A program made the translations under genes and the position numbers. Below, piece by piece: positions 12,340 to 33,340 of a stretch of DNA of 64,000 nucleotides (position 1 is the stretch's first letter; every line of letters begins with the position of its first letter). Origin of the DNA: an uncultured bacterium (GTDB taxonomy: Bacteria > Verrucomicrobiota > Kiritimatiellia > CAIKKV01 > CAITUY01); NCBI GenBank assembly GCA_903908715.1, contig CAIVSY010000041.1:11314-75313 (forward strand), given 5' to 3'. The notes below the pieces were generated by a model that had not been told where the DNA came from, made no database searches, and was given only the letters and a program-made list of their open reading frames with translations.

Positions 12340-12415
12340 CTGAACATACCACATATTGTGGTTTTCCACATACAAAACACTACGGCTCGTATGTTAAAAA
12401 AAAAGCCAAAAAGAC
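12340..12415 (+). promoter_or_regulatory. Candidate DnaA-box / A-tract region upstream of dnaA
   Basis: CCACATATTGTGGTTTTCCACATAC contains TTTTCCACA (8/9) and an inverted CCACA...TGTGG. An A9 tract follows. Confidence 0.4.
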
Positions 12416-12667
12416 TCGGTTTTTACCTTGTCAGTATGGGGTTCGTGGCCTATTGTCCTGCCCTGTCGGGCGCGAGAATAGAAGATAGGTGGCATGTTAA
12501 TAACCTGTTGATAACTCGCAATAACTCGGATCGCGGCCGGCGGGATTTGAACGGGACGAAAAAACGCCCTGAAAAAGCAGGGTGCGGGAATTTACCGATG
12601 CTCAACGTTGCGCGCGAGGATTTTTCGCGCTCTTTTTTTGGAGGCAGTTGTGATCGCAAATGATGCC

Positions 12668-14011
12668 ATGACAGTTTGGAGGCCGGCGTGCGAGCACTTG
12701 AAAAAGCTGCTCCATCCCGATGTCTACCTGCGCTGGATCGAGGTGATCGAGCCGAAGCGGCTGGAAAACGACACTCTTACGCTGGCGGTGGATAACAACT
12801 TCTACCAGACGTGGCTGGAGGAGAATTACCTGCCCCTGATCCAGACGGCCGTTGCAACCGTCTGCGGAGAAAACCTGAAGATCGTCTTCGCCGTCGGACG
12901 CAAGAGTGTTGGCTCCCCGGTTGCGGAAAAATCTGCGCCGGCGCACGTGGAGAAGCCCGTCAAGGCCGCGCCGCGCCGCACACCTTCGGATGTGATCCTG
13001 AATCCGAAGTGTACGTTCGACGAATTCATTGTCGGCGCATCGAACAACATGGCGCATGCCGCGTCTCTTGCGGTGGCGCAGTCTCCGGGCCGCGCTTATA
13101 ACCCGTTGTTCATCTACGGCGGCACCGGGCTGGGCAAGACGCACCTGATGCAGGCGATCGGACACCATGTGCTGCGCAACTCGAACGCGCGCATCTGCTA
13201 TGTCACCTCGGAAACCTTCATCAACGAGTTCATCGAAAGCATCCAGCACAATTCGTTCGTGCAGTTTCGCCGTAAGTACCGGAGCGTGGACCTGCTGTTG
13301 ATTGACGATATCCATTTCCTGACCGGCAAGGAGCGCATGCAGGAGGAGTTCTTCCATACCTTCAATGCGCTGTACGATGCCCATAAGCAGATCGTCATGA
13401 CCAGTGACCGGCCTGCCAGCGAGATCCAGGGCCTGGAGCAGCGGCTGGTTTCCCGCTTCGAGTGGGGCCTGGTCACGGAACTCCAGCAGCCGGATCTGGA
13501 GACCCGCATCGCCATCCTGCGCAACAAGCAGAAGCAGGGCGGCCTCACCCTTTCGGACGAGATCCTTTTCTTCCTGGCGAAGTCCATCCGGTCCAACATC
13601 CGACGGCTGGAAGGAGCCCTGATCCGCCTGACCTCGTATACCTCCCTGGTGAACCGGCCGGTCACACTGGCCGACGCGGAGAATCTGCTGCGCGATACCC
13701 TCGACCAGGAGAAGCAGGAGGCGTTGACCTTCGAGCAGATTATCAAGACCACCGCGGATCATTACGACTTGCGGCTTGTGGATATGACCAGCAAGCGGCG
13801 TCCGGCGGCCATCACGATGCCCCGCCAGGTGGCCATGTATCTCTGCCGGAACCTGACTCCCGCATCCCTGCCGGAAATCGCCTGCGCGTTCGGCAAAACC
13901 CACGCCACGATTCTTCATGCCTGCCGGATCGTGGAGAAGAAAATGGAAACGGATTCCAACCTGCGGCAGGATGTTTCCCACCTGTTCAAGGTGCTGGAGA
14001 AGAAAAGTTGA
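12668..14011 (+). CDS. dnaA: Chromosomal replication initiator protein DnaA
   Basis: AAA+ Walker A GGTGLGKTHL, LLIDDIHFLTGKERMQEEFFHTFNAL, C-terminal DNA-binding domain AFGKTHATILHACRIVEKK. Alternative in-frame GTG at 12650 follows GGAGG. Confidence 0.95.
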   Translation: MTVWRPACEHLKKLLHPDVYLRWIEVIEPKRLENDTLTLAVDNNFYQTWLEENYLPLIQTAVATVCGENLKIVFAVGRKSVGSPVAEKSAPAHVEKPVKAAPRRTPSDVILNPKCTFDEFIVGASNNMAHAASLAVAQSPGRAYNPLFIYGGTGLGKTHLMQAIGHHVLRNSNARICYVTSETFINEFIESIQHNSFVQFRRKYRSVDLLLIDDIHFLTGKERMQEEFFHTFNALYDAHKQIVMTSDRPASEIQGLEQRLVSRFEWGLVTELQQPDLETRIAILRNKQKQGGLTLSDEILFFLAKSIRSNIRRLEGALIRLTSYTSLVNRPVTLADAENLLRDTLDQEKQEALTFEQIIKTTADHYDLRLVDMTSKRRPAAITMPRQVAMYLCRNLTPASLPEIACAFGKTHATILHACRIVEKKMETDSNLRQDVSHLFKVLEKKS

Positions 14012-14017
14012 CAACCG

Positions 14018-14026
14018 TGTGGATAA
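14018..14026 (+). promoter_or_regulatory. Perfect DnaA box TGTGGATAA in dnaA-dnaN intergenic region
   Basis: 9/9 match to the consensus, on the reverse strand. Followed by TTGTTCACA (7/9) and an AT-rich stretch at 14161-14235. Confidence 0.6.
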
Positions 14027-14247: not shown

Positions 14248-15342
14248 ATGAAAATCGTCATTGGCAAGGACGCGGTTTTATCTGGATTGCAGATGGTTCA
14301 TGGTGTGGTGAATGTCCGTCCCACGCTTCCCGTACTTTCGAATGTTCTTCTGCAGGCGGAAGCGGACAAGTTATGGATGACCACCACGGATTTGGAAGTC
14401 AGCGTACGCTGTCTCGTGGATGCCAAGGTTGGCAAGGCCGGCGGAACCACCCTTCCCGCACGCCGCCTGCTGGGCATTGTGCGCGAACTGCCGGTGGAGA
14501 ACATCGATATTGACGTGGACGACAAGAATAATGCCGTCATCTCCTGCGGATCCGCCTATTTCAAGATCCTGGGTTTGCCCCAGGATGATTTTCCCGCGAT
14601 TGCCGGTTACCAGGGAGGTTCAACCTTCACACTGGAACAGAGAGTGCTCAAGGATATGCTGCAGAAGACCTTCTATGCGGCATCCACCGATGAAACGCGG
14701 TTTATCCTGAACGGCACCCTCTTGAGTTTCAAGGGGAACAAGCTGACCGTGGTGGCAACGGATGGGCGGCGGCTGGCATTGGCGGAGCAGGAACTGGAAT
14801 TCCCAAAGGAATCTGAAGTGGACGCCATCATCCCGACGAAGGCTGTGAATGAAATCCTGCGTATGCTCAAGGATGAGGGAACTGTCAAGGTCCACGTCAC
14901 GAAAAACCAGGCGGGTTTTGAAGTCGAGAATATGGTGCTTACAACCAAGCTGATTGAAGGCACCTATCCGAACTTCCGCCAGGTGATACCGGCCCAGTGC
15001 GAGCATCGCATTGCGGTTGAGCGGGAGAGCCTCCTTACGGCGCTGCGGCGTGTGGCGTTGCTGACCAGCGAGAAATCGAGTTCCGTCCGTTTGACATTCG
15101 GGAAGAGCAAGCTGAAGATCAGCGCTTCATCCCCGGATGTGGGCGAGGCGCATGAATCCGTGGCGATCAAGTACAACGGCAAGGAAATGACCGTGGCGTT
15201 CAATCCTGAATACATCATGGAGCCGCTCAAGAACCTGGCGAATGACGAGATTTATGTCGAGATGACGGATGAACTGAGCCCGGGCGTGATCAAGAGTGAT
15301 GTGCCGTTCATCTATGTGCTGATGCCGATGCGGATTTCGTGA
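14248..15342 (+). CDS. dnaN: DNA polymerase III beta sliding clamp
   Basis: MKIVIGKDAVLSGLQMVHGVV...LLQAEADKLWMTTTDLEVS typical DnaN N-terminus. Roughly 364 aa across three domains. Confidence 0.93.
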   Translation: MKIVIGKDAVLSGLQMVHGVVNVRPTLPVLSNVLLQAEADKLWMTTTDLEVSVRCLVDAKVGKAGGTTLPARRLLGIVRELPVENIDIDVDDKNNAVISCGSAYFKILGLPQDDFPAIAGYQGGSTFTLEQRVLKDMLQKTFYAASTDETRFILNGTLLSFKGNKLTVVATDGRRLALAEQELEFPKESEVDAIIPTKAVNEILRMLKDEGTVKVHVTKNQAGFEVENMVLTTKLIEGTYPNFRQVIPAQCEHRIAVERESLLTALRRVALLTSEKSSSVRLTFGKSKLKISASSPDVGEAHESVAIKYNGKEMTVAFNPEYIMEPLKNLANDEIYVEMTDELSPGVIKSDVPFIYVLMPMRIS

Positions 15343-15420: not shown

Positions 15421-15494
15421 TGCCCGATGGTGTAATGGTAGCACAACAGACTCTGGATCTGTTTGTTCTGGTTCAAGTCCAGATCGGGCAACCA
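15421..15494 (+). tRNA. tRNA-Gln (anticodon CTG), CCA encoded
   Basis: Manual cloverleaf: acceptor TGCCCGA/TCGGGCA, D-arm GTGT-AATGGTA-GCAC, anticodon stem ACAGA/TCTGT with loop CTCTGGA, T-arm TCTGG-TTCAAGT-CCAGA, discriminator A plus CCA. Confidence 0.85.
15455..15491 (+). repeat. Direct repeat copy 1 (3' half of tRNA-Gln, 37-43 bp)
   Basis: GGATCTGTTTGTTCTGGTTCAAGTCCAGATCGGGCAA is identical to 16247..16283. Confidence 0.9.
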
Positions 15495-15527
15495 CTTCCA
15501 ATTAAAACCCATTCTGGAAATCCTGCC

Positions 15528-16097
15528 ATGTGCAACAAGGCCGACGAGGAGCATAACCAGAAGGCCTTTGCGCCTTATCAGGTGGAAGGTCCCCTGCCTG
15601 AGATCCATGGCCGCATCCATATCGCCGACTTCGCCGGCGACCAGAGCGGCCGATTCCACTTCGGCGGCAACGTCATCATCAACTCCGGATTTGAGGCCAA
15701 TCCGGTGGGCGGCTTCCGGACGGTTCTGCTCTTCAAGGGACCGAACGCCCTGATCGAGATCGGCGACCGTACCGGCATTTCCAACGCCATGATCGCCGCC
15801 TACGAACGGGTCACCATCGGGGCGGACGTCAACCTGGGCGCCGGGTGCAAGATCATGGACACCGACTTCCACTCCCTTGACCTGCAGGAGCGGATCGACA
15901 ATGTGAACATCCCGCACCGCCCGGTCACCATTGAGGACGGGGCCTTCATCGGCACCGAGGCGATCATCTGCAAGGGGGTCACCATCGGCCGTGAATCGGT
16001 GATCGGGGCGGGTGCCGTGGTCGTAAGGAACGTACCGCCCGGCGAGATCTGGGGCGGCAATCCCGCCAGATTCATCCGTAAACTGAAGAAAGATTAA
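15528..16097 (+). CDS. Hexapeptide-repeat (LbH) sugar O-acetyltransferase
   Basis: Met38 of ORF 15417..16097, which otherwise overlaps the tRNA. Left-handed beta-helix repeats IGADVNLGAGCKIM and AFIGTEAIICKGVTIGRESVIGAGAVV. Confidence 0.8.
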   Translation: MCNKADEEHNQKAFAPYQVEGPLPEIHGRIHIADFAGDQSGRFHFGGNVIINSGFEANPVGGFRTVLLFKGPNALIEIGDRTGISNAMIAAYERVTIGADVNLGAGCKIMDTDFHSLDLQERIDNVNIPHRPVTIEDGAFIGTEAIICKGVTIGRESVIGAGAVVVRNVPPGEIWGGNPARFIRKLKKD

Positions 16098-16246
16098 CGC
16101 GGTCCCCCATGCTTGCTTCATCGAGGTCGCCCGAGTGCATCCGGTACGACGGATGGGGGAACGGCTGACGCAAGGACAGACCCGCAGGTTGACCCAGGAC
16201 GGCGCTCCACCCTGAGACTCGGGGGCTGAGTTTGCCTCAGGACTCC

Positions 16247-16283
16247 GGATCTGTTTGTTCTGGTTCAAGTCCAGATCGGGCAA
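16247..16283 (+). repeat. Direct repeat copy 2 (duplicated tRNA-Gln 3' end; putative attR remnant)
   Basis: Exact 37-bp copy of 15455..15491, extended to about 43 bp with one mismatch. No intact tRNA 5' half upstream. Confidence 0.85.
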
Positions 16284-17131
16284 TCAGCCTTGCAAGCTCG
16301 CAGGTACCGGATGGCCTTGGCGATATCCCCGCGCGGATCCTCGCCAACCTCGCGCTCGATGGTCAGGCTGCCCCGGAATCCGGTCTCGCGCAGGGCGGTG
16401 AGATAGGCCGGGAACGGCACGTTCCCCTCGCCCAGCGGAGTCTCCCGGATGTACTCCCAGGGTTTGAGGGTCCCCTCTCCCGCAAAAGCGCCATACAGCA
16501 ACTCGGCGTCGACAGGCTGAAGATTGATCCCATCCTTGGCATGGGTGTGGACAATGTACCGCGCAAGAAGGCGAACAGCTTCAGGAATGTTTTCCCGGCA
16601 AACCATGACCAGGTTGGCGGGATCGAAGTTGACCCCGATCCCGCCCTCGAGTTCCAGACGATCCAGAAAATCGCGCAATACACGGGCGGGTTCCGGTCCG
16701 GTTTCGATCGCGAACACCCCGCCCAGGGAATGGGCCGCTTCCCCGAGTTCGGCGCAGGCCCGGGCCAGTACCGCATAACGGGGATGATCGGGGGAAGAAG
16801 GAATAACTCCAATATGTGTGGTAACCACGTCGCAGTCCAGTTCCCGCGCCAGTTGCAAGACCCGCTTGGAATCCTCAATCCTTTGCCGGTTTCCGGCTTC
16901 GGACTGGAAGCCGTGCCCCCCGAAATCGCCGCATACGGCCGCTACCCGCAGCCCATGGTCATTCAACTGGGCCCGGAACTCCTTCAATGCGCGTCCTCGG
17001 AGACGCGAGAAATGGGTTTCGCCGGTTGTGGCATAAAACTGGATACCGTCGGCCCCCAGTTCCGCCGCCGCTTCCACGCCGCCGCGCAATCCCGCCCGGA
17101 ACGATTCGACCATTACGCCAATGCGAAACAT
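16265..17131 (-). CDS. Sugar phosphate isomerase/epimerase (xylose isomerase-like TIM barrel)
   Basis: TIM-barrel AP-endonuclease/xylose-isomerase-like pattern (VTTHIGV, FAIETGPE, NFDPANL, HTHAKD). Confidence 0.75.
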   Translation of the reverse strand: MFRIGVMVESFRAGLRGGVEAAAELGADGIQFYATTGETHFSRLRGRALKEFRAQLNDHGLRVAAVCGDFGGHGFQSEAGNRQRIEDSKRVLQLARELDCDVVTTHIGVIPSSPDHPRYAVLARACAELGEAAHSLGGVFAIETGPEPARVLRDFLDRLELEGGIGVNFDPANLVMVCRENIPEAVRLLARYIVHTHAKDGINLQPVDAELLYGAFAGEGTLKPWEYIRETPLGEGNVPFPAYLTALRETGFRGSLTIEREVGEDPRGDIAKAIRYLRACKADCPIWT

Positions 17132-18183
17132 GCTTTTTCTCTCCTGCTGTCCGGAATCTGCCGGCTGGCTTTTTCTTGAATCTCCCGCGAGAGGTTCGAA
17201 ATGAGGCCGATGCCCGCCCGGATTGCGGCTGATGTCAGCAAGGGCTCGACCACGGGCTGGTTGATGGCGGGCTCAAGGCAATACCCAACAAAGTCCGCCA
17301 ACTCATCCTTTACCTGGTTGTTGTCCGGCTTGATCCATCCGGGGACGCGGCAATCCAGTTCCTGCCCTCCCAGCCTGAGCCGCTTGGCCATGAAATCCCC
17401 CACGAGGTTCTCTCCGCTGCCGGTCCGCAGGACGCACTGCCGCGCCCTGGAGTTTTCCTCGACCAGCCAGGAAAGGTGCAATTCCCCGCATACTCCGCTG
17501 GAATGCTGTACACGGATGGCGACCTCGCGCGTATGGGATTGGACCTGGCGGAAATCCAGGACCTCCGCCTGCGCCACCGGCCCGAATAGAAACATGGCAA
17601 GATCCAGATCATGAACGGCCTTGTCGGTGACAATATCATCCGGGATGCGCGGGTCATGCGGCTGGCAGCGCAGGAAATGATATCCGGTAACGACCGTCCG
17701 GTTGTCGGACAACAGGTCCTTGATGCGGATGGCTACCGGATTATAGCGCTCCACATGCCCCGCCATGATTCGGACACCGGCCCGCCCGGCGCGGGCCGCC
17801 AGATCGTCCCACTCGTCCACGGTTCGCGTGACGGGCTTTTCCACAAAGGCATGGATACCCGATTCCAGGGCATCCGCGGCCATGGTGTGATGTTGCGCGG
17901 AAGGCGTGGCAATGACGACCATATCCGGGCGCACAGTTTTCAGCATGGACGGGTAATGGGTGAAGAAGGGGATGTCCGGAAAGCTCTCCGCTCGCCGGGC
18001 ATCCACATCGCACAGGCCGCAGAGGCGGATCTTGCCGACCTGTTCCCGGAGACCGGCCTTGTAATACTCTTCTGCCCGGCCTTCGGACAGTTGCAGGAGA
18101 GCCCGCACATGGTATGTGCCCATCTTGCCGGCTCCGGCTACCGCAACCCGGATTTCAGGGGCATCACGCCGGATCAGAGCCAT
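17113..18183 (-). CDS. Gfo/Idh/MocA family oxidoreductase
   Basis: Internal Met (MALIRRDAPEIRVAVAGAGKMG) carries the Rossmann GxGxxG. The track ORF extends further as Arg-rich non-coding-like sequence. Confidence 0.75.
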   Translation of the reverse strand: MALIRRDAPEIRVAVAGAGKMGTYHVRALLQLSEGRAEEYYKAGLREQVGKIRLCGLCDVDARRAESFPDIPFFTHYPSMLKTVRPDMVVIATPSAQHHTMAADALESGIHAFVEKPVTRTVDEWDDLAARAGRAGVRIMAGHVERYNPVAIRIKDLLSDNRTVVTGYHFLRCQPHDPRIPDDIVTDKAVHDLDLAMFLFGPVAQAEVLDFRQVQSHTREVAIRVQHSSGVCGELHLSWLVEENSRARQCVLRTGSGENLVGDFMAKRLRLGGQELDCRVPGWIKPDNNQVKDELADFVGYCLEPAINQPVVEPLLTSAAIRAGIGLISNLSREIQEKASRQIPDSRREKACFALA

Positions 18184-18203: not shown

Positions 18204-19211
18204 TTACACCTTGACGGGTTGCCCCGTCCGCAGGCTTTTCACTTCCGCTTCCACGATCTTGACGGATAGCGCGGCGCTGGCCGGTTCCACGGCCCGCGGG
18301 CGCCTGCCCTTGCGGATGCAGTCCACGAAATAACGGATCTCGTGCTCGTAGCCGATACCCGCCTTGACGGCGACCGGCTTGACCTTGCCGTTCTGCACCA
18401 CGGTGAGCTGGTTGGCCGCGCCCAGATCGAAAATGGCGGTGGCCTTCTCGAAGTTCACCGTGTATTGCATCTGGAAACCAAATCCCTGCGCCATGGCCCA
18501 GCCGCCTTCGGCGACGACCAGCGGGATTTTCCTGTAGAGGTAATGCGTGGTGACGTGATCGATGCGGTTGGTGTGGCGGGCGTACCCGCGGCTGAAGACG
18601 GAGTCCGGTTTTCCGAAGCAATACTGCACAAAATCGGTATCGTGGATGTGCAGGTCCAGAATGGCTCCCCCGCAGGCATTGCCGTTGCTGTAGAAGGGCC
18701 CGCCCGGATGCTGGGTCACCCGGCGGAAGTGGGCTGCAAGCACCTTGCCGTAGGTGCCGGCCTCGATGACTTCCTTCAGCCATCCCCAGGCCGGCCAGAA
18801 GCGCATGCACATTGCACACATCAGCATCGGTTTGGCGGAAGCCGCCGTTTTGGCGAGCTGGTCCGCCTCCCGCCCGGTCAGTGCAAATGGCTTCTCGGTA
18901 AGGACATGTTTGCCGGCCTTAAGGGCGGCGGTGGCGTACCTGCCATGCAAAGGCGTCGGCAGGCAGATATCCACAATGTCCACTTCGCGGTCGCCGATCA
19001 GTTTCATGCCCTCGTCGTACTTCTTGAAGGACGAGAAATCGATCCCGCCCTGTGACTGGCCCTTGACGTTTCCGGCCACCACGCTGCGGCCTTCCCTCCG
19101 GTCCCGGATGAGATCCGCCACGGCGACAACCTTTACTCCGCGAATCTTCCCGTACGCATCCAGATGGGTCGAACCCATCATTCCGATCCCGATAATCCCG
19201 ACTTTCAGCAT
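18204..19211 (-). CDS. Gfo/Idh/MocA family oxidoreductase
   Basis: MLKVGIIGIGMMGSTHLDAY N-terminal Rossmann motif and EKPFALTGREADQL. Confidence 0.85.
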   Translation of the reverse strand: MLKVGIIGIGMMGSTHLDAYGKIRGVKVVAVADLIRDRREGRSVVAGNVKGQSQGGIDFSSFKKYDEGMKLIGDREVDIVDICLPTPLHGRYATAALKAGKHVLTEKPFALTGREADQLAKTAASAKPMLMCAMCMRFWPAWGWLKEVIEAGTYGKVLAAHFRRVTQHPGGPFYSNGNACGGAILDLHIHDTDFVQYCFGKPDSVFSRGYARHTNRIDHVTTHYLYRKIPLVVAEGGWAMAQGFGFQMQYTVNFEKATAIFDLGAANQLTVVQNGKVKPVAVKAGIGYEHEIRYFVDCIRKGRRPRAVEPASAALSVKIVEAEVKSLRTGQPVKV

Positions 19212-19247: not shown

Positions 19248-20108
19248 TTACAATTTCAACAGTTTCCCGGCGGTGCGTGCCGCCAGGTCTGTGTCCGGAA
19301 GACCCAGGTTCGGCAGGCGCGAGAACGGAATCATCTCGGCGGTCAGCGGCCCCTGGTAGCCGATTCTCTTCAGGGCTTCGAACACGGCGGGAAAGTCCAC
19401 TTCCCCCTCCAGGATGTCTTCCCCGAATCCGTGCAGGTTACCGCCGGCCAGCGAGTCGCCTTTCCAGTTCTTGATGTGGACGGCCTTGATTCGCTTGCCG
19501 ACAATCTCAATGTAGTCCTGTGACCGGACGTACAGGCAGGAATTCCCCACGTCAAAGTACATTCCGATCCGGTCCGACGGGAACTGGTCGAGAAAGAATT
19601 TCCACTCCATGGGCGAGAGAAGGAATCGGCCCCAGACATTCTCCAGTGCAATATTCACCCCGAGTTTTGCCGCCACAGGCTCCAGTTCCTGCAGAGACCT
19701 GACCGACTGCTTCCACGCCGTCTCGTACGGTGTTACGGGGATCGATGGATCCCAGGGGACCCGTGATGCCCCCGGGACAACCAGGACACTTTCCGCGCCC
19801 AGCCAGTTGGCGATCTGCAGATACTTCCGGGAAAAGGCGATGGCTTCCTTCCGGACCGATTCATCGGCTGAACTCAGGGATTTTCCCCAGAAGAAACCCG
19901 TTGCCAGGGTTCTCAGGCCGATGGAATGCTGCCGCGCAAAGGCCGAGATTCGCCGGCATTCTTCCTCGGAAATATCTATTTTGATTGCATCTCCAACCGT
20001 CAGTTCCACCCCGTCGAGTCCGGACTTCCGGGCCCAATCGATAAACTCATACGGCGTCCTGACTCCTTCAAACCCGCCGAATATCCAATAATTCAGGGCC
20101 TTGTACAT
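19248..20108 (-). CDS. Sugar phosphate isomerase/epimerase (TIM barrel)
   Basis: Start at Met7, preceded by AAGGAG. LENVWGRF and YFDVGN motifs of the xylose-isomerase-like family. Confidence 0.75.
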   Translation of the reverse strand: MYKALNYWIFGGFEGVRTPYEFIDWARKSGLDGVELTVGDAIKIDISEEECRRISAFARQHSIGLRTLATGFFWGKSLSSADESVRKEAIAFSRKYLQIANWLGAESVLVVPGASRVPWDPSIPVTPYETAWKQSVRSLQELEPVAAKLGVNIALENVWGRFLLSPMEWKFFLDQFPSDRIGMYFDVGNSCLYVRSQDYIEIVGKRIKAVHIKNWKGDSLAGGNLHGFGEDILEGEVDFPAVFEALKRIGYQGPLTAEMIPFSRLPNLGLPDTDLAARTAGKLLKL

Positions 20109-20450
20109 GGCATCTCCTTCATTCAAATGGCGTCAACATATCAGGCGTAAACAAGAAATAATATGAAAAAATATACGCGCGGTAAAGTTGAGGTTTAGAG
20201 TCATTTATTCTGCTGATCCGGCGCAATTCAGTTGCCGGTCGGCATTCCCTTTCCCTTGACGTGAGAGGGTTTGGGTGGGGGTGGTTTGAATGGAATCGCT
20301 CCGGATGAAGGAGGCGAAGGATTTCCTGATCCGGAACGGGCATGGTGGAAGCCGATGGAAGCGACCGAAAATCGTTTGCATGCGAGGCTTGGAAAACATA
20401 GCATGAAAGGCTGTGGTGTTATTGTCTGCGGTGCGAAGCGGAGGTTGTGT

Positions 20451-21554
20451 ATGGCCAAGGTTGTATTGGAGCGCGTTGAAAAGGTGTACCCGGGTGCCGT
20501 AAAGGCGGTGGATAACTTCAATCTGGAAATCCGCCAGGGTGAATTCGTGGTGCTTGTGGGACCCTCCGGTTGCGGAAAATCCACCACTCTGCGCATGGTG
20601 GCGGGACTCGAGGAAATTACGGGTGGGACCATAAAGATCGGTGATCGCGTTGTGAATGATGTTCCGCCCAAGGACCGGGATATCGCGATGGTATTCCAGA
20701 ACTACGCGCTCTACCCGCATATGACAGTGCGGGAGAACATGGCGTTCGGGCTCAAGCTCCGCAAGTTTCCCAAGAGCGAAATTGAGGCGCGGGTGAAAGA
20801 GGCCGCGAGCATCCTGGGGCTCAGCGAATTGCTCGATCGCCGCCCCAAGGCCCTCTCCGGAGGGCAGCGCCAGCGTGTGGCCGTGGGCCGCGCGATTGTG
20901 CGGAAACCCGAGGTTTTCCTGTTTGATGAGCCCCTTTCCAACCTGGACGCCAAAATGCGAGTGCAGATGCGCGTGGAAATCAGCCGGCTGCACCAGAAAC
21001 TGGGCGCCACCATGATTTATGTTACCCATGACCAGATCGAGGCGATGACCATGGGGGAACGGATCGTGGTTATGAAGGACGGATTGATCCAGCAGGTGGC
21101 TTCGCCGCTGGAGTTGTACGACAAACCCAGTAACCAGTTTGTCGCCGGATTTATCGGTACGCCGCCTATGAATTTTGTGAACGGCGTGATGTGCGAGGCG
21201 AATGGACAGATGATGTTTGAAGGGCCTGAAGGGGTACGGCTTGCGGTCTCCGCGGCGACGAAGACGGCCCTGGCGGCCTACCTCGGGAAGCCCGTTGTCC
21301 TGGGATTGCGGCCTGAACACATCGGTTCCACGGCGGCAGAGAGCCTTTCCGGCGCTCCCCGGATCCAGGCCACGGTGGATGTGATCGAGCTGATGGGGTC
21401 GGAATCCTATGTCTATCTTCGCAACGGCGGATGGAATTTCGTCAGCCGGGTTGATGCGCACCGCAAATTCAACGTTGGCGCAACAGCAGACCTTGCGGTG
21501 TTGATTGACAAGGCGCATTTCTTTGATCCGGCCAGCGGGAAGCGGATAGACTGA
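20451..21554 (+). CDS. Sugar ABC transporter ATP-binding protein (MalK/UgpC/MsmX-type), no adjacent permease
   Basis: Met61 of ORF 20271..21554. GPSGCGKST, LSGGQRQRVAVGRAI, FLFDEPLSNLDA, and a C-terminal TOBE-like regulatory domain. Confidence 0.9.
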   Translation: MAKVVLERVEKVYPGAVKAVDNFNLEIRQGEFVVLVGPSGCGKSTTLRMVAGLEEITGGTIKIGDRVVNDVPPKDRDIAMVFQNYALYPHMTVRENMAFGLKLRKFPKSEIEARVKEAASILGLSELLDRRPKALSGGQRQRVAVGRAIVRKPEVFLFDEPLSNLDAKMRVQMRVEISRLHQKLGATMIYVTHDQIEAMTMGERIVVMKDGLIQQVASPLELYDKPSNQFVAGFIGTPPMNFVNGVMCEANGQMMFEGPEGVRLAVSAATKTALAAYLGKPVVLGLRPEHIGSTAAESLSGAPRIQATVDVIELMGSESYVYLRNGGWNFVSRVDAHRKFNVGATADLAVLIDKAHFFDPASGKRID

Positions 21555-32593: not shown

Positions 32594-33340
32594 ATGAAAT
32601 TCAACAAGACCATAACGGATCAGCGGATGTCGGCCTTTGCCAAGTATCGGCGGGTCTACTACGGAACCCTGCCCCTCGGCCGTGTCCTGGCCGCGGAATG
32701 CATTCTTTTGCTTTGCAGCAGCCTGCCGGGGGCGGCGGGATTCTGGTTGCGAGGCAAACTCTACCGCTGCCTTTTCGCTTCCGTCGGCAAGGGTGTTGTT
32801 TTCGGGCGCCACTTGACCCTGCGGCATCCGCACAAGATCCGCCTCGGGAACCATGTGGTGGTGGATGATAATGTCGTTCTCGACGCAAAGGGCGACCATA
32901 ACCAGGGGATCACGGTGGGCGATCACGTGTTCCTCGGCCGCAACACGATTGTCTACTGCAAGGACGGTGATATCGTGCTGGGGCCCAAGGTCAATATCTC
33001 CTCCAATTGCCAGATATTCTCCTCCAACCGGCTTGTGGTGGGGGCGGGCACCGTGATGGGAGCCTTTTCCTACTTCCTGAGCGGGGGCGAATATGATGCC
33101 GGATCCGAGACGCCTTTCGCCGACCAGGATGTCCAGCCCTCGAAGGGGCCTTTGACTATCGGAGCCAATTCCTGGATTGGCGCACATGTCACCATTACCG
33201 ATGCTTCCTGCATCGGGGAGCATTGCGTGATAGGGGCTGGTGCGGTCGTAGTCAAGCCGATCCCGTCCGACAGCGTGGCGGTGGGTGTGCCGGCCCGTGT
33301 TGTCAAATCCCTGCCGGCCTTCCGGGTTGTCCATGAATAA
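32594..33340 (+). CDS. Hexapeptide-repeat acetyltransferase (WcaF/LacA-like)
   Basis: Met62 of ORF 32411..33340. LbH repeats VGDHVFLGRNTIVY and IGAHVTITDASCIGEHCVIGAGAVVV. Confidence 0.8.
   Translation: MKFNKTITDQRMSAFAKYRRVYYGTLPLGRVLAAECILLLCSSLPGAAGFWLRGKLYRCLFASVGKGVVFGRHLTLRHPHKIRLGNHVVVDDNVVLDAKGDHNQGITVGDHVFLGRNTIVYCKDGDIVLGPKVNISSNCQIFSSNRLVVGAGTVMGAFSYFLSGGEYDAGSETPFADQDVQPSKGPLTIGANSWIGAHVTITDASCIGEHCVIGAGAVVVKPIPSDSVAVGVPARVVKSLPAFRVVHE

Follow-up and report, generated by a model that had tools for sequence, protein, structure and literature searches.

The tRNA-Gln(CTG) gene that follows dnaN in an uncultured freshwater Kiritimatiellia bacterium is accompanied by a directly repeated copy of its own 3' part, and the unit that the two copies enclose is most likely a decayed tRNA-linked islet, similar to the elements described as CIMEs. 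With moderate confidence, we attribute this unit to a site-specific integration event at the anticodon loop of tRNA-Gln and to the heavy decay by deletions that came after it. What can be seen at the locus today are the repeat with its boundaries, the relics of a fucosidase gene, an altered tail of the neighbouring isomerase gene, the presence of the arrangement in every contig on record for the species and its absence from relatives.

The tRNA-Gln locus near the replication origin

The window, i.e. the whole stretch of 64 kb that was analysed, represents the origin region of this bacterium (Table 1). The genomes nearest to it by DnaN are MAGs labelled Verrucomicrobiota or Kiritimatiellia, with 88-92% identity. 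A cluster of two isomerase genes and two GFO-type oxidoreductase genes is convergent on tRNA-Gln, and the malK-like ABC ATPase gene further on is followed by genes for a 2-hydroxyacid dehydrogenase, mnmE and mnmG.

DnaA-box-like 9-mers were found to be enriched in the window, with 19 occurrences vs 6.5 expected (region noted 12362-14026), and a perfect TTATCCACA is located at 14018-14026 in the AT-rich spacer between dnaA and dnaN (GC ~0.45). This pattern is consistent with an oriC adjoining the tRNA-Gln insertion. An antisense ORF of 470 aa at 12602-14014(-) mirrors dnaA almost exactly; such long shadow ORFs are usual for GC-rich genes, and this one does not represent a gene.

Table 1. Features of the tRNA-Gln locus (positions in the window)
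Feature	Position	Strand	Basis or remark
dnaA	12608-14011	+	
dnaN	14248-15342	+	
tRNA-Gln(CTG), complete, CCA encoded	15421-15494	+	ARAGORN; 78 nt past dnaN
Left repeat copy, anticodon stem to tRNA 3' end (putative attL)	15449-15494	+	exact block 15455-15491
Spacer from tRNA end to acetyltransferase start codon, 33 nt	15495-15527	+	
Acetyltransferase gene, hexapeptide-repeat, 189 aa	15528-16097	+	Pfam Hexapep, Hexapep_2
Relic of acetyltransferase-fucosidase intergenic spacer with fucosidase start codon (CCCATGCT)	16098-16115	+	aligned to L069 1068-1085
Fucosidase relic A, ~gene nt 486-513 of L069 alpha-L-fucosidase	16132-16159	+	local alignment score 36
Fucosidase relic B, ~gene nt 1058-1102 of L069 alpha-L-fucosidase	16160-16204	+	local alignment score 30
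36-nt stretch just left of tRNA fragment	16205-16240	+	
Displaced tRNA-Gln 3' fragment (attR-like)	16241-16286	+	exact block 16247-16283
Junction between tRNA fragment and isomerase homology	16287-16298		
Xylose-isomerase-like TIM-barrel gene (sugar phosphate isomerase/epimerase family), convergent	16265-17131	-	Pfam AP_endonuc_2
GFO-type oxidoreductase 1 of the convergent cluster	17113-18183	-	
GFO-type oxidoreductase 2 of the convergent cluster	18204-19211	-	
Second isomerase of the convergent cluster	19248-20126	-	
malK-like ABC ATPase	ends 21554	+	

A displaced 3' copy of tRNA-Gln

The tRNA-Gln gene was called complete by ARAGORN and was also recognized by Rfam (RF00005, 15421-15491, 65.3 bits). 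A repeat search paired its last 46 nt with a direct copy at a start-to-start distance of 792, the two being 96% identical (44/46). A reading made from the sequence alone (hereafter the sequence-only reading) had described the last 37-43 nt of the tRNA as repeated exactly 792 bp downstream; repeat and spacing hold, but the exact block comprises 37 nt and stops 3 nt short of the tRNA end, where the gene has CCA and the copy TCA. This block occurs at two sites only in the 64 kb when up to 3 mismatches are allowed, and gave no match in 100 shuffles. Of the two mismatches, one falls on the middle base of the anticodon (CTG in the tRNA, CCG in the copy) and one on the C that opens the terminal CCA.

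The left limit of the copy is tRNA position 30. From there, it takes in the final two bases on the 5' side of the anticodon stem and runs on over the anticodon loop, the variable loop, the T arm and the 3' acceptor strand. The likeness ends at the last tRNA base, …GGGCAACCA being followed by CTTCC in the gene and …GGGCAATCA by GCCTT in the copy. A simple tandem duplication was ruled out, since the sequence past the fragment is unrelated to the sequence past the tRNA. Loose matching across the window revealed no further pieces of tRNA-Gln, degenerate ones included, and Rfam made no tRNA call on the fragment, tRNA-Gln being the sole Rfam match in the interval scan.

The geometry of the repeat matches the one that would be expected of a regenerated tRNA gene and its displaced fragment after the action of a tyrosine integrase at the anticodon loop. 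A complete tDNA and a cognate fragment in direct orientation lie in one replicon, and the fragment is a 3' fragment that begins in the anticodon region, a known crossover sublocation, and ends at the tRNA 3' terminus. In the Islander survey, crossovers were assigned to the anticodon loop or to the T-loop/acceptor junction, 3' fragments were present in 3760 of the 3919 islands and anticodon-centred attP sites in 2083 of them (PMC4383910).

One metagenome contig of the same species (L080) ends at window position 15474, inside the exact repeat. This end could reflect low coverage, or an assembly-graph branch caused by the repeat or by a population variant.

The acetyltransferase gene between the copies

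The interval between the repeat copies measures 746 nt and contains, as far as intact ORFs are concerned, one single gene, which the sequence-only reading had already named as an LbH O-acetyltransferase gene. Its 189-aa product is a left-handed beta-helix sugar O-acetyltransferase that is closest to the maltose/galactoside O-acetyltransferases; the best NCBIfam matches (maltose O-acetyltransferase, WcaF/WbbJ) all score under the curated cut-offs, and the PDB matches include 3ect and 3srt. Full-length homologues have 185-189 aa, and the closest share 74-87% identity. The five contexts of such homologues that were fetched are glycan-utilisation loci: transporter-acetyltransferase-fucosidase (L066-68), acetyltransferase-fucosidase (L069-71), sulfatase-acetyltransferase (L063-65), esterase (Pfam SASA)-acetyltransferase (L084) and an acetyltransferase gene alone beside a photolyase gene (L081). 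Neither a tRNA nor an integrase was found near the acetyltransferase gene in any of the five. Elsewhere in the window, a paralogous hexapeptide-repeat coding region at 33149-33337 shows ~40% protein identity to the C-terminal part of the acetyltransferase family (tblastx).

The nearest homologue, in L069, is 83% identical to the acetyltransferase gene at the nucleotide level. Its homology begins ~12 nt before the start codon, extends past the stop codon and over the 10-nt spacer until it reaches the fucosidase start codon and is then broken, the blastn alignment reaching window position 16113. On the left side, tblastx and blastn homology to L069 and L063 starts at ~15513-15516. At least the last ~12-15 nt of the 33-nt spacer behind the tRNA thus share homology with the sequence that natively precedes the acetyltransferase gene in relatives, and a weak alignment may reach further upstream of ~15513.

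Scans of the interval for promoters, terminators and structure found nothing. Because no promoter-like site was seen, we propose that the gene is probably transcribed by read-through from the tRNA; its expression as such is something we infer. Presumably, the gene has been kept intact through selection.

No compositional anomaly was observed, the GC content of the interval (0.57-0.64) being like that of the flanks, and the cargo, an acetyltransferase-fucosidase pair typical of the clade, shows neither foreign composition nor mobility genes. The isomerase cluster is 79-80% identical at the nucleotide level to that of L075, a locus from the same sample, and the acetyltransferase gene is similarly diverged from L069. 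Since these two divergences are alike, the cargo could be native, and it may have come from the own lineage or from a very close relative rather than having been imported.

Relics of an alpha-L-fucosidase gene

The 127 nt behind the point where the homology to L069 breaks off are not random sequence, and in them we were able to recognize two further pieces of the L069 alpha-L-fucosidase gene. Relic A translates into ECIRYDGWG, compared to ECIWYDGWW in L069. Relic B directly abuts relic A and is colinear with it but stands in another frame, which implies an internal deletion of ~545 nt. The highest control scores were 28 (200 shuffles) and 29 (1493 control segments of the same length); for both relics together, the summed score of 66 stands against a control maximum of 51 (1493 segments). 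As judged from these alignments, an alpha-L-fucosidase gene of ~1.27 kb once lay behind the acetyltransferase gene at this place, and a minimum of three deletions has reduced it to ~110 nt. Since the relics are significant and colinear, and since a fucosidase gene directly follows the acetyltransferase gene in L069-71 and in L066-68, the segment must formerly have been larger. The sequence-only reading had left the choice between a very small islet captured as such and the loss of most of an element; the relics between 16098 and 16204 speak for the loss and against the small islet.

The 36-nt stretch between relic B and the tRNA fragment gave no significant match in any fetched locus and could be a remnant of the element arm adjoining attR. 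No stable structure was detected in 16098-16300 (fold z-score 0.61).

The tail of the convergent isomerase gene

The tRNA fragment overlaps the last 6 codons and the stop codon of the convergent isomerase gene, so that the second copy lies inside the 3' end of this gene, as had been noticed before. According to a C-terminal alignment of 11 homologues, the isomerase family is conserved up to …DIAKAIRYLR, followed by short variable tails, which read SACAALE and stop in L073 and SACAALTNHRSS and stop in L075. The isomerase of the window ends in …ACKADCPIWT with a stop codon at 16265-16267: the frame crosses the 12-nt junction into the tRNA fragment, and DCPIWT and the stop are read from the antisense strand of the fragment. 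DNA homology to L073 and L075 breaks off at ~16292-16299. By comparison with these homologues, the gene lacks ~5 ancestral codons and its own stop, the ancestral tail …SACAAL… having been replaced. The replaced tail lies outside the Pfam AP_endonuc_2 domain (residues 19-280).

This loss of codons and stop requires an extra deletion that ended at most 5 nt from the fragment, and the right flank of the putative attR is no intact native flank. The 5 nt past the fragment, GCCTT, resemble the 5 nt past the tRNA of L073, TCCTT, which lends weak support to the view that the fragment is what used to be the end of the tRNA, still joined to a short remnant of its native flank.

Distribution in the species and its relatives

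All same-species contigs on record (~10, from at least 7 assemblies) carry the arrangement and are 99.6-100% identical to the window. When the acetyltransferase and DnaN were looked up as exact proteins, all contigs returned were filled, with no empty site within the species, and the sole other isomerase allele on record ends in the same fragment-encoded tail.

The congener L073 (85% nucleotide identity over dnaA-dnaN, 78% over the isomerase cluster) has an identical tRNA-Gln and the same isomerase-GFO-GFO-isomerase cluster convergent on it, and it is without acetyltransferase gene, fragment or tRNA repeat, a 527-aa protein being encoded in the slot. The presence of the same convergent cluster in L073 identifies the cluster as the older chromosomal flank and the 792-bp unit as lineage-specific. 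An identical tRNA-Gln without fragment and acetyltransferase gene was also found in L005/L072 (78% nucleotide identity). The three species are identical through the last base of the tRNA and unrelated from the first base past CCA. Further away, the order dnaA-dnaN-tRNA-Gln(CTG) is conserved in ~40 of 58 related MAG loci, and none of these 40 has a second tRNA-Gln copy or fragment within a flank of up to 8 kb. A metagenome scan with the clade-specific tRNA 3' end retrieved one contig, which belongs to the L005 species and added no context.

The duplication is specific to this lineage and probably later than the split from L073, since the two copies differ at 2 of 46 positions whereas L073 has diverged by ~15% at the nucleotide level. 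The comparison of loci that the sequence-only reading had proposed thus gave the absence of fragment and acetyltransferase gene from L073 and L005/L072, and not the duplication in all relatives that it had named as evidence against an insertion; a clean empty site was not among the loci, as L073 and L005/L072 carry other sequence after the tRNA.

Search for an integrase and related elements

Neither the 64-kb window nor the flank of up to 8 kb downstream of tRNA-Gln in the 40 related loci yielded a tyrosine recombinase. The search consisted of two regular-expression scans for box II of tyrosine recombinases and of phmmer with two integron-integrase-like queries, applied to the six-frame ORFs of the window and of 84 loci, a space in which very divergent integrases could escape. 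It found just the two query proteins themselves, which are encoded in distant relatives. These integron-integrase-like tyrosine recombinases (L046 9282-10883(-) and L056 12154-13188(-), from two distant Kiritimatiellia MAGs) lie 0.2-4.5 kb from dnaN and share the motif …HSFATHLLEAG.DIRTVQ.LLGH…TMIYTHV.

No tyrosine integrase gene is located inside the interval, which holds the acetyltransferase gene and the fucosidase relics, and the earlier statement that no integrase remains is borne out for the window by both the motif and the phmmer searches. Likewise, none of the IMG/VR contigs carried the tRNA 3' end of this clade or the common Kiritimatiellia variant (two scans), and no related ICE or IME was present in the 84 fetched loci. 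Of the initial claim that the repeat is the signature of a tRNA-targeting integrase, the att-like, direct and lineage-specific geometry is confirmed, whereas the involvement of an integrase or of a mobile element is putative.

Origin of the unit

The sequence of events that we favour would have begun with an element whose attP corresponded to the stretch of the tRNA between anticodon loop and 3' end and which recombined with the gene via a tyrosine integrase. The element's copy would now complete the tRNA as attL, and the original 3' part would have been pushed to the far end as attR. The element or its cargo would have held an acetyltransferase-fucosidase pair as it occurs in glycan-utilisation loci of related Kiritimatiellia. 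Deletions would then have taken out the integrase and all else, broken the fucosidase gene down to three or more pieces and, on the left, come within ~20-30 nt of the acetyltransferase start. A further deletion would have fused the displaced fragment to the 3' end of the isomerase gene, which would since then terminate within the fragment. It is the catalysis by an integrase and the order of these events that we infer in this account.

The missing integrase, the lack of a viral match, the ordinary composition, the native-like divergence and the need for an extra deletion keep a different account alive, namely a rearrangement independent of any integrase, in which the acetyltransferase-fucosidase segment was moved or patched in and a nearby piece of the tRNA was copied along. 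As routes, we considered an intragenomic move and the repair of a break by illegitimate recombination or template switching. Such an origin, which we regard as unlikely though to be reckoned with, would fit the interval as a patchwork of colinear pieces (18, 28 and 45 nt from the fucosidase locus, then 46 nt of tRNA), the damage to the isomerase 3' end at the junction, the divergence of the cargo, which equals that of core genes, and the lack of an integrase or related element in the window, the related loci and the viral contigs scanned. Random breakpoints, however, are not expected to fall at the anticodon stem-loop and at the last tRNA base, which are typical limits of att identity blocks, and a pseudogene shortened by one deletion after another would leave colinear pieces of one orientation just as well.

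Two further readings fit worse than a rearrangement. The fragment as the relic of a second tRNA-Gln gene from a former tandem pair, whose 5' 29 nt were deleted, is improbable: the right boundary at the tRNA 3' end would be expected of a gene relic as well, and the substitutions in anticodon and CCA look like pseudogene decay, but tRNA-Gln is single in each of the 40 related dnaN-adjoining loci, no trace of a tRNA 5' half exists upstream of the fragment or elsewhere in the window, and 37 exact bases beside a heavily eroded gene would need a recent duplication or gene conversion. Still harder to accept, and in our view very improbable, is a capture of the unit as one gene, be it a mini-islet or an integron-type cassette. 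Acetyltransferases are common among cassette genes, the unit of ~0.75 kb contains a single promoterless gene in the orientation of the tRNA, and integron-integrase-like genes occur near dnaN in two distant relatives. Against this, the unit was once larger, as its fucosidase relics show, the 3' region consists of such a relic, without an attC-like structure and folding no better than its shuffles, and neither IntI nor another integrase was detected in the window.

Integration followed by decay, the reading preferred here, leaves room for an additional and quite improbable property of the product, namely that the 792-bp unit with attL, one acetyltransferase gene and attR still functions as a minimal cis-/trans-mobilizable cassette. 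If so, the unit could be excised and moved by an integrase that comes from another place in the genome or from an incoming element, and the Kiritimatiellota would contain a one-gene integrative unit at a tRNA att site. If the site were active, the excised chromosome would read tRNA-5'-half/…GGGCAA(C/T)CA/GCCTTGCAAGC, and the junction of the circle would be 16240|…|15495.

Comparison with known elements

Islands integrated into tRNA genes are said, in work going back to Reiter in 1989 and Williams in 2002, to lie between a regenerated tDNA on one side and a displaced 3' fragment on the other. The locus studied here resembles such islands as collected by Islander (PMC4383910) in the complete tRNA, the direct 3' fragment downstream, the lineage-specific content between them and the identity block, which opens in the anticodon region and closes at the 3' end of the tRNA. 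It differs from them in having no integrase, an interval of 746 nt instead of kilobases to hundreds of kilobases, a content of one gene and a gene relic, and a damaged right flank. The integrase filter of Islander, which also has a length filter, would reject the unit.

CIMEs are decayed ICEs or IMEs that keep attL and attR while the genes for integration and transfer are lost, and for some of them, transfer in tandem with an ICE has been demonstrated (PMC5704250). In the tRNA-Gln unit, both att-like sites, whose att function is putative, are kept with an exact core of 37 nt, while the integration genes are gone, no integrase being detected, and the contents are decayed. CIMEs have been described mainly in Firmicutes. 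Unlike these, the present unit belongs to a host of the phylum Kiritimatiellota, and no partner element was found among the 84 fetched loci. It is also similar to the genomic islets and degenerate prophage remnants at tRNA genes, as it is a small accessory segment eroded by deletions; in contrast to them, its cargo is neither of phage nor of virulence type, but a glycan-metabolism pair typical of the chromosome of the clade.

The unit may therefore be regarded as a scar of a known kind in a little-studied phylum, and its mechanism is not new. It provides a clear small example of how strongly an inserted segment can erode around one surviving useful gene, and of how the final codons and the stop of an adjacent gene can come from a tRNA fragment. 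For annotation, a pseudo-fucosidase, an att-like scar and an altered isomerase C-terminus can be recorded, and the locus is a lead toward the integrative elements of the poorly studied Kiritimatiellota.

Variation at the tRNA-Gln site

The tRNA-Gln beside dnaN, near the replication origin, is a variable site in this freshwater Kiritimatiellia lineage. The slot protein of L073 (4802-6385) has 527 aa, Gly-rich repeats and no Pfam match on record; its hydrophobic N-terminus looks like a signal peptide, so that it may be a putative secreted repeat protein, and no homologue of it was found in the window. In L005 (7309-7677(-)) and L072 (4469-4752), only the C-terminal ~110 codons of a malK-like gene follow tRNA-Gln. 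The probable orthologue of this piece in the window (21222-21551(+), 72% nucleotide identity) runs in the opposite orientation, and the contig of the relative then ends in AT-richer sequence, so that the hotspot may have undergone an inversion with an insertion, or the assembly may have broken there.

The orientation of the tRNA gene varies as well. In the clade of the window, tRNA-Gln lies on the strand of dnaN, and in Pontiellaceae-/Tichowtungia-type genomes it lies on the opposite strand, ~10-90 nt past dnaN (e.g., L031 9103-9176(-), L034 9107-9180(-), L047 9107-9180(-)), a difference that resembles the outcome of a small inversion limited to the tRNA gene.
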